Shown one piece after another: positions 56,542 to 64,000 of a DNA stretch of 64,000 nt. Origin of the DNA: Escherichia coli (GTDB taxonomy: Bacteria; Pseudomonadota; Gammaproteobacteria; Enterobacterales; Enterobacteriaceae); the NCBI RefSeq assembly GCF_003334355.1, contig NZ_QOWP01000001.1; one strand, written 5' to 3'. Both the position numbers and the translations under genes were made by a program. Within the stretch, counting starts at the first letter, position 1. Each line of letters opens with the position of its first letter. The notes under the pieces are model-generated. The model worked only from the letters and a program-made list of their open reading frames with translations. It was not told the origin of the DNA and did no database searches.

Positions 56542-57182
56542 AGCCTGCCATTTTTAGCTCAATTCGGCGATGACCTGGATCAATCGTCCCGGCCTGCTTT
56601 TATCAACTGCATAATCAATCAAAATTACCGAAATTTCATGCATAATCACATAAATCACTTTTGCTTATCTTGTGTCAGATTTTTTTATCTCCTTATGGAT
56701 TTTAGGCAAAAACAGTAGCATGAAACGTCATTACCAATTAAGGCAGTATAAAATGCTGGTTTTGTCGTCAGTTCAAGGCAGGATAAGGGTTAACACGCCT
56801 TTATGACAGTCAGGAATTGACTGTTTCTCTAACGACTTCCCTTTTAGCCTTAAAGATAAAATCTATTTTAATTTCAGTCAGTTAATAAAGAATTTTGCGC
56901 TAAAGCACATTTCTGTACCAATAAGCTTGCTATTTGACCTGTATCAGCTTTCCCGATAAGTTGGAAATCCGCTGGAAGCTTTCTGGATGAGCAGCCTGCT
57001 CATCATATTTATGCAGTAATTGAGATCCCCTCTTCACCGTATTAACCGATGCGAAAAGGACAACAAGGGGGCGAATGCGAGGCGCGCGTATGACACGCAA
57101 ACCCCGTCGCCACGCTCTTTCTGTGCCCGTGCGCAGCGGTTCGGAAGTGGGGTTCCCGCAGAGCCTGGGGGAGGTTCACGAT
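56542..57182 (+). promoter_or_regulatory. gltBD upstream regulatory region and leader
   Basis: About 640 bp AT-rich non-coding DNA upstream of gltB; established knowledge places the gltB promoter and its regulator-binding sites here (individual sites not mapped); contains palindrome gatgagca-gcc-tgctcatc near 56986-57004. Confidence 0.45.
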
Positions 57183-60100
57183 ATGTTGTACGATAAATCC
57201 CTTGAGAGGGATAACTGTGGTTTCGGCCTGATCGCCCACATAGAAGGCGAACCTAGCCACAAGGTAGTGCGTACTGCAATACACGCACTGGCCCGCATGC
57301 AGCACCGTGGCGCGATTCTCGCCGATGGTAAAACCGGTGACGGTTGCGGCTTGCTGTTACAAAAACCGGATCGCTTTTTTCGCATCGTTGCGCAGGAGCG
57401 CGGCTGGCGTTTAGCGAAAAACTACGCCGTCGGGATGCTATTCCTGAATAAAGATCCTGAACTCGCCGCTGCCGCACGCCGCATCGTTGAAGAAGAGCTG
57501 CAACGCGAAACCTTGTCGATTGTGGGCTGGCGTGATGTCCCCACTAACGAAGGCGTGCTGGGTGAAATCGCCCTCTCCTCTCTGCCACGCATTGAGCAAA
57601 TTTTTGTGAACGCCCCGGCAGGCTGGCGTCCACGCGATATGGAGCGCCGTCTGTTTATCGCCCGCCGCCGCATTGAAAAGCGTCTCGAAGCCGACAAAGA
57701 CTTCTACGTCTGTAGCCTGTCGAATCTGGTGAACATCTATAAAGGTCTGTGTATGCCGGCGGATCTGCCGCGCTTTTATCTGGATCTTGCGGACCTGCGT
57801 CTGGAATCGGCCATTTGCCTGTTCCACCAGCGCTTCTCCACTAACACCGTACCGCGCTGGCCGCTGGCGCAACCGTTCCGCTATCTGGCGCATAACGGTG
57901 AAATCAACACCATCACCGGTAACCGCCAATGGGCGCGTGCGCGTACCTATAAATTCCAGACGCCGCTTATCCCTGATCTGCACGACGCCGCACCGTTCGT
58001 CAACGAAACCGGCTCTGACTCCAGTTCCATGGATAACATGCTGGAACTGCTGCTGGCAGGCGGGATGGATATCATCCGCGCCATGCGTCTATTAGTACCA
58101 CCCGCCTGGCAGAACAACCCGGATATGGACCCGGAACTGCGTGCCTTCTTTGACTTTAACTCCATGCATATGGAGCCGTGGGATGGCCCGGCGGGCATCG
58201 TGATGTCCGACGGTCGTTTTGCCGCCTGTAACCTCGACCGTAACGGTCTGCGTCCGGCGCGCTACGTCATCACCAAAGATAAGCTCATCACCTGCGCCTC
58301 TGAAGTCGGTATCTGGGATTACCAGCCTGACGAAGTGGTCGAAAAAGGCCGCGTCGGGCCAGGCGAACTGATGGTTATCGACACCCGCAGTGGGCGTATT
58401 CTGCACTCGGCAGAAACCGATGACGATCTGAAAAGCCGCCATCCATATAAAGAGTGGATGGAGAAAAACGTCCGCCGACTGGTACCGTTTGAAGATCTGC
58501 CCGATGAAGAAGTGGGTAGCCGCGAACTGGACGACGACACGCTTGCCAGCTACCAGAAACAGTTTAACTACAGCGCGGAAGAGCTGGACTCCGTAATTCG
58601 CGTACTGGGCGAAAACGGTCAGGAAGCGGTCGGTTCGATGGGCGATGATACCCCATTCGCCGTGCTCTCCAGTCAGCCGCGCATTATTTACGACTACTTC
58701 CGCCAGCAGTTTGCCCAGGTGACTAACCCGCCAATCGACCCGCTGCGTGAAGCGCATGTTATGTCGCTCGCCACCAGTATCGGTCGTGAAATGAACGTCT
58801 TTTGCGAAGCAGAGGGCCAGGCGCACCGTTTAAGCTTTAAATCGCCGATTCTGCTCTACTCCGATTTCAAACAGCTCACGACGATGAAAGAGGAGCACTA
58901 CCGCGCAGATACGCTGGATATCACCTTTGACGTCACTAAAACCACGCTCGAAGCGACAGTCAAAGAGCTGTGCGACAAAGCCGAAAAAATGGTACGTAGC
59001 GGCACCGTGCTGCTGGTGCTCTCCGACCGGAATATCGCTAAAGATCGCCTGCCGGTTCCAGCCCCGATGGCGGTTGGCGCGATCCAGACCCGTCTGGTCG
59101 ATCAAAGCCTGCGTTGCGATGCCAACATCATCGTCGAAACCGCCAGCGCCCGCGATCCGCACCACTTCGCCGTGTTGCTGGGCTTCGGCGCGACGGCTAT
59201 TTATCCATACCTTGCCTATGAAACGCTGGGCCGCCTGGTAGACACCCATGCGATTGCCAAAGATTATCGTACCGTGATGCTCAACTACCGTAACGGCATC
59301 AACAAAGGCTTGTACAAAATCATGTCCAAAATGGGCATCTCCACCATCGCCTCTTACCGCTGCTCGAAACTGTTTGAAGCGGTCGGTCTACACGATGATG
59401 TAGTGGGCCTGTGCTTCCAGGGGGCGGTCAGCCGCATTGGTGGGGCAAGCTTTGAAGACTTCCAGCAGGATCTGCTGAATCTGTCGAAACGTGCCTGGCT
59501 GGCGCGTAAGCCCATCAGCCAGGGCGGCCTGCTGAAATACGTCCACGGCGGCGAATACCACGCCTACAACCCGGACGTGGTGCGCACGCTGCAACAAGCG
59601 GTACAAAGCGGCGAGTACAGCGACTATCAGGAATACGCGAAGCTGGTTAATGAGCGTCCGGCAACCACGCTGCGCGATCTGCTGGCAATTACGCCGGGTG
59701 AAAACGCGGTCAACATTGCTGATGTTGAACCGGCAAGCGAACTGTTTAAACGCTTTGATACCGCCGCGATGTCTATCGGCGCGTTAAGCCCGGAAGCCCA
59801 CGAGGCGCTGGCGGAAGCGATGAACAGCATCGGCGGTAATTCGAACTCCGGTGAAGGCGGCGAAGACCCGGCGCGCTACGGCACCAACAAAGTGTCGCGC
59901 ATCAAGCAGGTGGCTTCCGGTCGCTTTGGGGTTACTCCGGCGTATCTGGTCAATGCCGACGTCATTCAGATTAAAGTCGCCCAGGGCGCGAAGCCAGGCG
60001 AAGGCGGTCAGTTGCCGGGTGATAAAGTCACGCCTTACATCGCCAAACTGCGCTATTCGGTGCCCGGAGTGACGCTGATCTCCCCGCCGCCGCACCACGA

Positions 60101-61643
60101 TATCTACTCTATCGAGGACTTAGCGCAGCTCATTTTCGACCTCAAGCAGGTTAACCCGAAAGCGATGATCTCCGTGAAGCTGGTTTCCGAACCGGGAGTA
60201 GGCACCATCGCGACTGGCGTGGCAAAAGCTTATGCGGACTTGATCACCATCGCAGGCTATGACGGCGGCACCGGCGCAAGTCCGCTTTCATCGGTGAAAT
60301 ACGCAGGCTGTCCGTGGGAGCTGGGGCTTGTTGAAACCCAGCAGGCGCTGGTTGCTAACGGCTTGCGTCACAAGATCCGTTTGCAGGTCGATGGCGGCCT
60401 GAAAACGGGTGTCGATATCATCAAGGCGGCGATTCTCGGCGCAGAAAGCTTCGGCTTCGGCACTGGCCCGATGGTGGCGCTCGGCTGTAAATATCTACGT
60501 ATTTGCCATCTGAACAACTGCGCAACGGGTGTAGCAACTCAGGATGACAAACTGCGTAAGAACCACTATCACGGCCTGCCATTCAAGGTGACGAATTACT
60601 TTGAGTTTATCGCCCGTGAAACCCGCGAGCTGATGGCACAGCTTGGCGTAACACGTCTGGTGGATCTGATTGGTCGCACCGACCTGCTGAAAGAGCTGGA
60701 CGGTTTCACCGCCAAACAGCAGAAGCTGGCGCTGTCGAAGCTGCTGGAGACTGCCGAACCGCATCCAGGTAAGGCACTCTACTGCACCGAAAACAACCCG
60801 CCGTTTGATAACGGCCTGCTGAACGCGCAGTTGCTGCAACAGGCGAAACCGTTTGTCGATGAGCGCCAGAGCAAAACCTTCTGGTTCGATATTCGCAACA
60901 CCGACCGTTCTGTCGGCGCGTCGCTTTCAGGCTATATCGCCCAGACGCACGGCGATCAGGGGCTGGCAGCCGATCCTATCAAAGCGTACTTCAACGGCAC
61001 CGCAGGCCAGAGCTTCGGCGTGTGGAACGCGGGCGGCGTGGAACTGTACCTGACCGGTGATGCCAACGACTATGTCGGTAAAGGCATGGCGGGCGGCTTA
61101 ATCGCCATTCGTCCTCCGGTTGGTTCCGCCTTCCGCAGCCATGAAGCAAGCATTATCGGCAACACCTGCCTGTATGGCGCGACCGGTGGTCGTCTGTATG
61201 CCGCAGGCCGCGCGGGTGAACGTTTCGGCGTGCGTAACTCCGGTGCTATCACCGTGGTAGAAGGCATTGGCGACAACGGTTGTGAATATATGACGGGTGG
61301 TATCGTCTGCATTCTGGGTAAAACCGGCGTTAACTTCGGTGCGGGCATGACCGGCGGTTTCGCTTACGTTCTCGATGAAAGCGGCGATTTCCGCAAACGC
61401 GTTAACCCGGAACTGGTCGAGGTCTTAAGCGTTGACGCTCTGGCGATCCATGAAGAGCATCTGCGTGGTCTTATCACCGAGCATGTGCAGCATACCGGCT
61501 CTCAGCGCGGTGAAGAGATTCTGGCGAACTGGTCAACCTTCGCCACTAAATTTGCGCTGGTTAAACCGAAGTCCAGTGATGTAAAAGCACTGCTGGGTCA
61601 CCGTAGTCGTAGCGCAGCTGAGTTGCGCGTGCAGGCGCAGTAA
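57183..61643 (+). CDS. gltB: Glutamate synthase (NADPH) large subunit, 1486 aa
   Basis: ORF track 57075..61643; trimmed to ATG giving [27 protein letters not shown] (N-terminal amidotransferase Cys); FMN and 3Fe-4S domains. Confidence 0.97.
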
Positions 61644-63074
<1,431 letters not shown>

Positions 63075-63083
63075 GCTCTGTCC

Positions 63084-63136
63084 CAGCGCCGCCTCCTCAG
63101 AAAAGAGTCGGCGCTGAAATTCTCCTTTCTTTCTGG
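63084..63136 (+). terminator. Candidate stem-loop downstream of gltD
   Basis: cagcgccg ... cggcgctg inverted repeat with about 17-nt loop followed by T-rich tract; weak terminator. Confidence 0.3.
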
Positions 63137-63257
63137 AAAGCGCCTCGCATAATCTGAAGAAAACCAATGTAATACGCTCATCTGGATTGTTACCGGTAGA
63201 TGCCCGGCGTATAGCTGATTCCATTATTCAACGCAGCGCCATATAAAGGGACAGATA

Positions 63258-63737
63258 ATGGAATCGCTCTCAGAGAGAACCTCAACAGGCTACCAGCAAA
63301 TCCATGACGGTATTATTCACCTGGTCGATAGCGCCCGGACGGAAACGGTACGTAGCGTTAACGCGCTGATGACCGCGACATACTGGGAAATTGGCCGACG
63401 AATTGTCGAATTTGAACAAGGTGGCGAGGCCAGGGCTGCGTATGGTGCGCAGCTAATCAAGCGACAATCAAAGGATTTAAGTCTAAGGTATAAGCGTGGG
63501 TTCTCTGCAAAAAACTTACGCCAAATGAGGCTTTTTTACCTCTTTTTTCAACATGTTGAAATTCGCCAGACAGTGTCTGGCGAATTAACACCATTGGGAA
63601 TTCCGCAGACACCATCTGCAGAATTCCCATCGGCAAAGATTTGGCAGACGCTGTCTGCCAAATTGAGAGGCTGTTTGATATTTCCACAGCTTTTGTATTG
63701 CATCTCCTATTTTCGGTTTGTATATTCATGCAAATAA
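63258..63737 (+). pseudogene. Truncated DUF1016/YhcG-family gene (N-terminal domain only; PD-(D/E)XK nuclease domain absent)
   Basis: ORF track 63258..63737 (159 aa); residues ~30-100 (LMTATYWEIGRRIVEFEQGG...GFSAKNLRQMRLFY) resemble the DUF1016 N-terminal domain; recognisable similarity stops at the triple repeat near 63560-63670, then an unrelated tail and stop. Confidence 0.5.
63561..63669. repeat. Three tandem degenerate ~38-bp units each with a palindromic core GCAGAC-N(1-5)-GTCTGC followed by AATT
   Basis: Units: ttcGCCAGACAGTGTCTGGCGAATTaacaccattgggaa / ttcCGCAGACACCATCTGCAGAATTcccatcggcaaaga / tttGGCAGACGCTGTCTGCCAAATTgagaggctgtttga. Confidence 0.7.
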
Positions 63738-63754
63738 ACGAAGGAAAGTTGCCA

Positions 63755-64000
63755 TGATTTACATTGAACAGCTTGAATTAATCCATAAAAGTGGTGATGT
63801 GTTGTATCCAGTAAAAATAACCAGAAAATCATCAGGAAAAACTGCCTTCCACCTTGTTCCATTCGGCTTAAATAAGACTCACGACCTTCTAGAGGTGGAA
63901 GATGCTTCAGAAGCAATTCGGCTGGTGATTGATGAACGTCATTCCATTCGCTGCAGTACACTTACAGCAACTATTACGAATAAAAAGGGCAAGCGAATTA
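63755..64000 (+). CDS. Hypothetical protein, N-terminal fragment (at least 81 codons), gene continues beyond window end
   Basis: ATG at 63755 preceded by AAGGAAAG at -13 to -6; reads MIYIEQLELIHKSGDVLYPVKITRKSSGKTAFHLVPFGLNKTHDLLEVEDASEAIRLVIDERHSIRCSTLTATITNKKGKRI with no stop before position 64000; no signal peptide; not recognised. Confidence 0.5.

Follow-up and report, generated by a model that had tools for sequence, protein, structure and literature searches.

The DNA considered here, hereafter the window, is a stretch of 64,000 nucleotides from the Escherichia coli chromosome. Close to its right end lies the subject of this report, an ATG-started open reading frame (ORF) of 159 amino acids, 183 bp 3' of gltD, that begins as yhcG, a gene of the DUF1016 family, and ends in foreign DNA. 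Three tandem palindromes are present in its yhcG-derived part. A preliminary description, made from the letters and translations of the window, had regarded this ORF as a gene remnant disrupted either by expansion of its repeats or by insertion of downstream DNA. The features on which the argument depends are listed below, with coordinates in the window and with + denoting the strand as presented.

63258-63737, + strand: ATG-started ORF of 159 amino acids
63258-63662, + strand: yhcG-derived part of the ORF, codons 1-135, with IWQTLSAK as its last residues (tblastn); the PGAP pseudogene coordinates of E. coli HS map to these same bases
63312-63590, + strand: match to DUF1016_N (PF17761), ORF residues 19-111 (Pfam independent E-value 4.2e-26, model positions 2-93 of 137)
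63560-63586, no strand: palindrome unit 1, AATTCGCCAGACA G TGTCTGGCGAATT, with perfect 13-nt arms, encoding IRQTVSGEL
63599-63625, no strand: palindrome unit 2, AATTCCGCAGACACCATCTGCAGAATT, imperfect, encoding IPQTPSAEF
63638-63664, no strand: palindrome unit 3, ATTTGGCAGAC GCT GTCTGCCAAAT, encoding IWQTLSAK
63663-63664, no strand: left breakpoint, 63663 being the last base in common with intact yhcG and 63664 the first diverged (end of the megablast alignment at query base 589, and side-by-side comparison)
63664-63737, + strand: read-through tail of 24 codons (LRGCLIFPQLLYCISYFRFVYSCK) and a stop, translated from the foreign patch and without homology to YhcG
63664-64000, + strand, running on to about 64134 past the window: foreign patch of 470 bp that replaces 780 bp of the intact locus
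63754-64000, + strand: 5' part of ORF101 (whole gene 101 amino acids, ending at about 64059), the RefSeq 'transposase' WP_000639208.1, at 12680-12985 of the E. coli HS locus L001

Searches with protein family models reveal which part of a YhcG protein the ORF encodes. The DUF1016_N match is the only one returned by Pfam, and no match to the PD-(D/E)XK nuclease domain (YhcG_C, PF06250) is found past residue 111. Similarly, the PADLOC models for PDC-S02 match the window ORF over residues 8-111 only (PDLC04807, 2.9e-32), as compared to residues 8-370 of intact YhcG (3e-136), and so the ORF belongs to the DUF1016_N family but gives no full-length PDC-S02 match. The preliminary description was therefore right about the N-terminal resemblance and about the lack of a nuclease domain, and its estimate of roughly 350-375 amino acids for intact family members agrees with the 349-375 found for the intact E. 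coli relatives. One difference from those relatives occurs within the retained domain. Codon 69 (63462-63464) is caa in place of cta, which yields KRQSKDL where HS and all intact alleles examined have KRLSKDL, a non-conservative L69Q change.

The extent of the remnant can be fixed to the base by comparison with intact genes. Codons 1-135 are 99.3% identical at the protein level to residues 1-135 of intact YhcG (tblastn), and DNA identity to intact alleles is about 99.5% from the gltD stop (63075) through base 63663, to resume only at the nanQ end. Position and identity together establish the ORF as an orthologue of E. coli yhcG. After IWQTLSAK the intact protein goes on with SFPLPWSTYVRLL, whereas the window reads LRGCLIFPQLLYCISYFRFVYSCK and then a stop codon. 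The similarity had been thought to end where the triple repeat begins, which is true only of the Pfam hidden Markov model (HMM) alignment, whose last residue, 111, is at the end of palindrome 1. The real end of yhcG similarity is at codon 135 in the protein and at base 63663 in the DNA. Homology to yhcG in the window thus spans all three units, and the left junction (63663/63664) falls in the right arm of the third.

Relative to the intact locus, 780 bp have been lost and 470 bp gained. The lost DNA comprises codons 136-375, which encode the whole nuclease half, and the fourth palindrome 3' of the yhcG stop, and it extends to about 18 bp beyond that palindrome. The suggestion of an insertion of downstream DNA was correct in that foreign DNA is present, but the event was a replacement rather than a simple insertion. 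In E. coli NRG 857C the gene order is gltD, yhcG (375 amino acids), nanQ, and an intact yhcG orthologue directly follows gltD in Salmonella, Citrobacter koseri, and Pseudocitrobacter as well; therefore, the intact state is ancestral. In K-12, by comparison, gltF-yhcA-yhcD-yhcE-yhcF is inserted between gltD and yhcG.

One alternative to a remnant is a gene that is intact and appears split only through a frameshift or a sequencing error, and it can be dismissed almost completely. No yhcG similarity occurs past 63663 in any frame, 780 bp are missing, and the same junction is present in 721 independent complete genomes. A displaced C-terminal half was likewise sought and rejected. A tblastn search with full-length YhcG, which had been proposed as a check in the preliminary description, found only residues 1-135 in the window and in a 25-kb HS locus, and a megablast search with the yhcG 3' half against 5,426 genomes revealed no second place for this half in carriers of the allele, which have a single place that covers 23% of the 3'-region query. 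Neither of the outcomes that would have spoken for a different origin, namely the lack of any DUF1016 match or the recovery of an intact homologue after correction of a frameshift, was observed: the HMM match is present, and there is no frameshift.

The arrangement is widespread among E. coli strains. When the 926 bp from 63075 to 64000 were used as the query for genome comparison, identity was 100% to strain PSS-12 and 99.9% to HS and ATCC 8739. The whole arrangement is found at 99.5% identity or more in 721 of 5,426 complete E. coli genomes (about 13%), with carriers that include HS, ATCC 8739, B/REL606/BL21, and O104:H4 C227-11, and the reading frame is open in these listed carriers. PGAP (RefSeq) labels the allele as a pseudogene, 'DUF1016 N-terminal domain-containing protein; incomplete; missing C-terminus', and in E. 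coli HS the RefSeq order is the DUF1016 pseudogene, the 101-amino-acid 'transposase' (WP_000639208.1), and the convergent genes nanQ-nanK-nanE-nanT-nanA-nanR. Truncated yhcG is a common, already annotated pseudogene allele and is ordinary as such. The truncated gene by itself adds little, and the conserved intragenic palindrome is the part of interest.

The DNA that replaced the nuclease half has relatives in other bacteria. Beginning at about 63668, the patch shares 85% identity with the ORF101 gene and its upstream DNA in Enterobacter and Yersinia, where the setting is a prophage region in the former and an integrase-adjacent island in Yersinia canariae. In lambdoid prophages, an ORF101 homologue with 59% identity adjoins the gene for antiterminator N and is encoded on the opposite strand; a place beside gene N is a typical cargo (moron) position. 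The length of ORF101 is conserved, and its ratio of nonsynonymous to synonymous substitution rates is 0.14-0.22 against the Enterobacter and Yersinia copies; it is a real small gene under purifying selection. No match to ORF101 was found in Pfam, NCBIfam, PADLOC, or a phage-genome collection, the best PHROG match is insignificant (E=0.15), and the AlphaFold model, with a predicted local distance difference test (pLDDT) score of 45, is too poor for a judgement of fold. The possibility that the ORF101 segment is a discrete cassette sharing the left boundary seen in E. coli was rejected because the copies in Enterobacter and Yersinia have about 165 bp of further upstream sequence in common.

The RefSeq product name of ORF101 raises the question of whether a transposable element was inserted into yhcG. 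Two Klebsiella plasmids might also be cited for this, since a copy of ORF101 DNA (85% identity) starts 132 nt downstream of an IS110-family transposase gene in both (L004 5000-5253; L005). A transposase or insertion sequence (IS) should be recognizable by a family match, by terminal inverted repeats with a target-site duplication, and by multiple copies, and none of these was found for ORF101 or the patch. The ends of the patch carry no terminal inverted repeats and no target duplication, and the patch is chromosomal and single-copy, at one place per genome. The 'transposase' name is therefore unsupported, as no model library matches ORF101 and the patch is single-copy, with neither terminal repeats nor a target duplication. 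Furthermore, the Klebsiella copy is 5'-truncated and frameshifted and has the look of a bystander cut by the IS, so that an IS110-linked origin of the patch was rejected, and the full-length homologues reside in prophage cargo positions and in the integrase-adjacent island without transposition genes. Overall, insertion of a transposable element is very improbable. The label itself may come from plasmids in which a truncated ORF101 copy lies beside an IS110-family gene. A likeness between a hairpin 3' of ORF101 and palindrome unit 3 was also considered, but the short matches are at chance level and were not used.

The three palindromes are each 27 nt and follow one another with a 39-bp period, and the triple repeat that had been described is therefore real. 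The same three repeats are present in frame in the intact 375-amino-acid YhcG of K-12 and NRG 857C, and intact E. coli YhcG proteins with one, two, or three units have 349, 362, or 375 amino acids (13-amino-acid units). Because intact genes carry these native repeats in one to three copies, the repeats are not the disruptor. Of the two causes suggested previously, repeat expansion is thereby removed, and downstream foreign DNA is left. In intact genes the third unit has 15-nt arms, AAAGATTTGGCAGAC GCT GTCTGCCAAATCTTT, and the window copy is without the outer 4 nt of the right arm. Existing annotation can be corrected on two counts: the repeats belong to yhcG itself, and the name 'transposase' is wrong for the small gene next to it, which occupies cargo positions in prophages and islands.

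When folded as RNA, the palindrome region has a z-score of -8.8 relative to shuffled sequences. A covariance-model search of both strands of 63000-64000 against Rfam 15 gave no match at E<=1, and within the 64-kb window the only units with a CAGAC core are those of yhcG. A further consequence of the palindromes is that the minus strand of 63559-63672 yields, on translation, a peptide with 50% identity to residues 100-135 of YhcG (tblastn E=6e-4), which is a trap for automatic annotation. The LSPA-6 scheme for typing O157 uses the length polymorphism of yhcG as a marker (PMC3514354), and a rearrangement hot spot marked by palindromes explains this use.

Several rearrangements between gltD and nanQ end at palindromes. 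K-12 has an extra unit (P0) 14 bp past the gltD stop and ahead of gltF, units P1-P3 inside yhcG, and a unit P4 about 14 bp past the yhcG stop, with unit centres at 2645, 10143, 10182, 10221, and 10983 of its locus stretch (L002). In strain HH97 (L019), P1 is fused to the flank of P4 and the yhcG 3' half is gone, as expected for a unit 1-to-unit 4 deletion. The 'empty' alleles of strains 2/0 and JA0265 (L100, L101) have 67 bp between gltD and nanQ, and these contain one palindrome with the left flank of K-12 P0 and an HH97-type right flank of P4. Such an allele could be the product of P0 and P4 or an unoccupied site. The window allele is a replacement with its left end in P3, and some shorter YhcG proteins have internal deletions that start at or just before the first unit (P0069, P0075; protein level only). 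Joints marked by palindromes are found in at least four independent allele types, and the gltD-nanQ region of E. coli is built of modules, with every joint occupied by a palindrome unit. The possibility that K-12 and NRG 857C are mosaics, with N- and C-terminal halves exchanged at the repeats, was evaluated and rejected, as divergence is unchanged across the repeats (96.4%, 97.2%, 96.9%).

With high probability, then, the ORF is a pseudogene composed of the first 135 codons of chromosomal yhcG and 24 out-of-context codons, its nuclease half having been replaced by a horizontally acquired 470-bp patch that carries ORF101, after which the allele spread. The earlier view of a gene remnant is upheld by the absence of the nuclease half, and without that domain the product cannot do what YhcG does. 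In the proposed series of events, an ancestor would have exchanged the stretch between the right arm of the third linker palindrome and a point about 18 bp past the fourth for the foreign patch with its unrelated small gene, and the resulting allele would subsequently have reached about 13% of complete E. coli genomes. Hairpin-forming tandem palindromes might create a fragile or recombinogenic spot through slippage, template switching, or hairpin cleavage, and we infer that a break in P3 could have been repaired illegitimately with foreign DNA.

Certain observations weigh against this explanation. The break mechanism is deduced from the position of a junction, and of the two junctions only the left lies in a palindrome, the right one being removed from the fourth unit by about 18 bp. 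No source was found for about 62 bp at the right end of the patch, and a simple scan of the region found no promoter. Also, the ORF is open in all carriers, whose identity of at least 99.5% is too high to gauge relaxed selection, and a stand-alone N-terminal domain may have a residual role.

This last point can be extended to the proposal that the 159-amino-acid ORF encodes a functional stand-alone DUF1016_N protein, such as a DNA- or RNA-binding regulator kept after loss of the nuclease. The open frame in the listed carriers is consistent with this, and many PADLOC PDC-S02 models are short (107-170 positions), an indication that N-terminal-only proteins are common in databases, although these short entries may be other breakage products. 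However, PGAP flags the gene as incomplete, the final 24 residues are unrelated DNA read out of context, and the near-identity of the carriers gives no evidence of purifying selection. In addition, the window copy already has the non-conservative L69Q change relative to HS and the intact alleles. A retained function of this kind is unlikely.

The palindromes have a distribution far wider than E. coli. The single EIPQTLSAES motif of the Salmonella gene is encoded by a perfect 12+1+12 palindrome, ATTCCGCAGACA C TGTCTGCGGAAT, and the yhcG orthologues of Pseudocitrobacter and C. koseri carry two perfect units and one unit with a single mismatch, respectively. A survey was made of 77 DUF1016 genes from GTDB species, fetched with a 6-sequence alignment, that represent Beta- and Gammaproteobacteria, Acidobacteria, Verrucomicrobia, Bacteroidetes, Nitrospirae, candidate phyla, and archaea. 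The consensus palindrome of the DUF1016 linker is ATTnnnCAGACAnTGTCTGnnnAAT, with a length of 25-27 nt. Perfect palindrome arms of at least 8 nt are present in the linker of 71 of the 77 genes (median arm 12 nt), as against only 14 of 77 with a palindrome of that size elsewhere in the gene. Each gene has one to four units. These number 3.8 per kb within the linker, against 0.0 per kb elsewhere in the gene and 0.06-0.10 per kb in the flanking sequence of the 77 loci.

Conservation of the encoded peptide does not by itself account for these arms. When the protein was held fixed and synonymous codons were shuffled within each gene, the mean longest arm fell from the observed 11.0 to 5.4, and the empirical p was 0.05 or less in 70 of 77 genes. 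The codon phase is the same in 138 of 144 units, and there is hardly any variation at four-fold degenerate positions; for example, 137 of 144 units have a G two positions 3' of the centre. Changes on both sides occur at 10 of 12 pairs among 105 distinct units. The percentage paired is inflated, since the units had been preselected to have 10 or more of the 12 pairs in Watson-Crick form; double changes were gauged against controls, and double-changed cells number 209, as compared to 54 +/- 7 in shuffled controls and 15-27 in slid ones. A pattern scan of viral contigs in which three variable pairs were left free yielded 31 sites, with at least two of the three free pairs complementary in 30, where chance would give about 16% if 25% per pair is assumed and where several of the contigs are near-identical. 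The coupled changes shift the peptide in pairs (P...A, R...G, L...A, W...A, with variants such as ISETVSRKF and ISESLIRKS), and therefore the constraint is on nucleotides and not on protein alone. Among mismatches, G:T (13) is rarer than A:C (39), a wobble pattern that lends no support to an RNA helix of the sense strand.

In the AlphaFold model of intact YhcG (mean pLDDT 81.6), residues 104-121 are coil with pLDDT below 50, and the last unit leads into a helix at 125-136 (pLDDT 64-85). None of the papers searched contains the core palindrome in connection with bacteria or describes a palindrome within genes of the DUF1016 family. The DUF1016 linker palindrome is thus a conserved and apparently undescribed family-wide feature.

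One possible explanation, which we advance tentatively, is that the palindrome is a conserved cis-acting nucleic-acid element of DUF1016/YhcG genes in bacteria and archaea alike, recognized by their own product, a NucS/resolvase-like PD-(D/E)XK nuclease, or by universal machinery, whose copies also serve as module joints for the loss, gain, and exchange of cassettes. Such an element would be a hairpin, a cruciform, or a dyad site placed in frame in the inter-domain linker. Its role could be in autoregulation, self-targeting, or recombination, and the gltD-nanQ alleles of E. coli, including that of the window, would be examples of module joints.

A mutational origin is conceivable as well, and we grant it a real chance without considering it probable. 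The palindromes and their compensatory changes would then be the by-product of a self-maintaining quasipalindrome, and the break in yhcG would reflect the plain fragility of such sequence. Quasipalindrome template switching is known from E. coli mutagenesis work. By this process one arm would be copied onto the other, with protein selection on Q-T-x-S anchoring one of the two. The absence of a G:T excess over A:C, and so of any sense-strand RNA helix signature, fits this explanation, as do the solitary units that exist outside genes and the last unit, which abuts a folded domain and part of whose peptide may be constrained. However, place, codon phase, and core sequence are kept in archaea as well as in different bacterial phyla, four-fold degenerate sites hardly vary, and the units are concentrated in the linker and missing from the rest of the gene. 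It is also not obvious why a purely mutational attractor should be confined to one gene family.

Either outcome would be informative. The DUF1016 family is a large, uncharacterized nuclease family and a candidate for phage defence, with 24,775 cluster representatives at E<=0.001. If the palindrome is functional, it provides a concrete substrate or operator hypothesis for the uncharacterized proteins of the YhcG family. If it is not, the family offers a striking example from nature of a quasipalindrome that maintains itself within coding sequence.

Comparisons with known systems help to place both the ORF and its repeats. The first comparison is with K-12 YhcG (b3220; DUF1016/COG4804, PF17761 and PF06250), with which the window shares the orthologous 5' half, the start, the N-terminal domain, the three linker palindromes, and a neighbourhood bounded by gltD and nanQ. 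The window ORF differs in that it is without codons 136-375, which encode the PD-(D/E)XK domain, and without the fourth palindrome, and K-12 has in addition gltF-yhcADEF and P0 between gltD and yhcG. PDC-S02 is a single-gene phage-defence candidate that intact YhcG matches end to end and the window ORF matches in its N-terminal part only. Since the window copy has no nuclease, it is not a complete PDC-S02 system. PDC-S02 is itself a candidate system only, and the papers found mention it solely as a PADLOC hit.

The nuclease domain of YhcG has the motif E-D-E(I/L/V)K and was predicted in 2005 to resemble DUF91, with a relation to NucS, and YraN/archaeal Holliday-junction resolvases (PMC1189080). 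In the model of intact YhcG, the solved structures closest to the nuclease domain are those of NucS/EndoMS, Bax1, and Can2/Card1 (2vld, E=2e-5; 5gke, 1e-4), in agreement with the DUF91/NucS prediction. Intact YhcG has no relative in the PDB at the sequence level, and the helical N-terminal domain of the model gave no structural match. No part of the NucS/Bax1/Can2-like domain is present in the window ORF.

The repeats have two kinds of known counterparts. The central repeats of HsdS in type I restriction-modification systems are in-frame repeats between two domains whose number varies between alleles. The 13-amino-acid units of YhcG likewise vary between alleles (349, 362, and 375 amino acids), but each is a near-perfect DNA palindrome kept across phyla. 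Among palindromic repeats, E. coli has the repetitive extragenic palindromic (REP) sequences and bacterial interspersed mosaic elements (BIMEs), and Rickettsia has palindromic elements that lie in frame inside genes. Like the yhcG units, these are short and hairpin-forming, can be multi-copy, can lie in frame in ORFs, and mark rearrangement joints. The yhcG units differ from them in sequence and have no Rfam match. Furthermore, units of the yhcG type are essentially confined to the DUF1016 linker among the 77 loci, whereas REPs are extragenic and genome-wide.

Some units do occur outside DUF1016 coding regions. A Bacteroidetes metagenome-assembled genome (L064) has a unit 39 nt past the DUF1016 stop, like P4 of E. 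coli, and the E. coli locus (L020) is the only other one of the 77 diverse loci with a unit in this position. Solitary units of the same type outside recognizable DUF1016 genes make up 12 of the 31 sites of the viral scan, mostly in stretches without long ORFs (contigs L102, L106, L113, L114, L117-L120, L127, and L129), and these could be deletion scars or independent sites. In one IMG/VR contig (L130), in which no DUF1016 gene was detected near the site, two direct repeats of 179 nt (4686-4864 and 6008-6186) are 94% identical, and each contains a DUF1016-type palindrome. They flank a two-gene cassette (176 and 126 amino acids), whose neighbours, judged from translations only, are an AAA/PD-(D/E)XK-like ORF of 544 amino acids and an integrase-like (tyrosine recombinase) ORF.

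The remaining features of the window are upstream of the ORF.

57075-61643: gltB
61656-63074: gltD, which directly precedes the region of the ORF
63084-63116, + strand: hairpin just past the gltD stop, with arms CAGCGCCG and CGGCGCTG, read from the sequence and compared with K-12 and the 'empty' alleles

The hairpin is a possible gltD terminator in the allele type of the window; a simple scan of the region for terminators gave no call, for this hairpin or otherwise. At this place the yhcG-type palindrome P0 is present instead in K-12 and in the 'empty' alleles. In K-12, an antisense or divergent transcript of stationary phase, G0-10703, is reported to overlap the yhcG 5' region by 128 bp (PMC7967276). 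In E. coli HS, a few kilobases past the nan operon and outside the window (HS locus L001, 18915-20281), dcuC is annotated as frameshifted.

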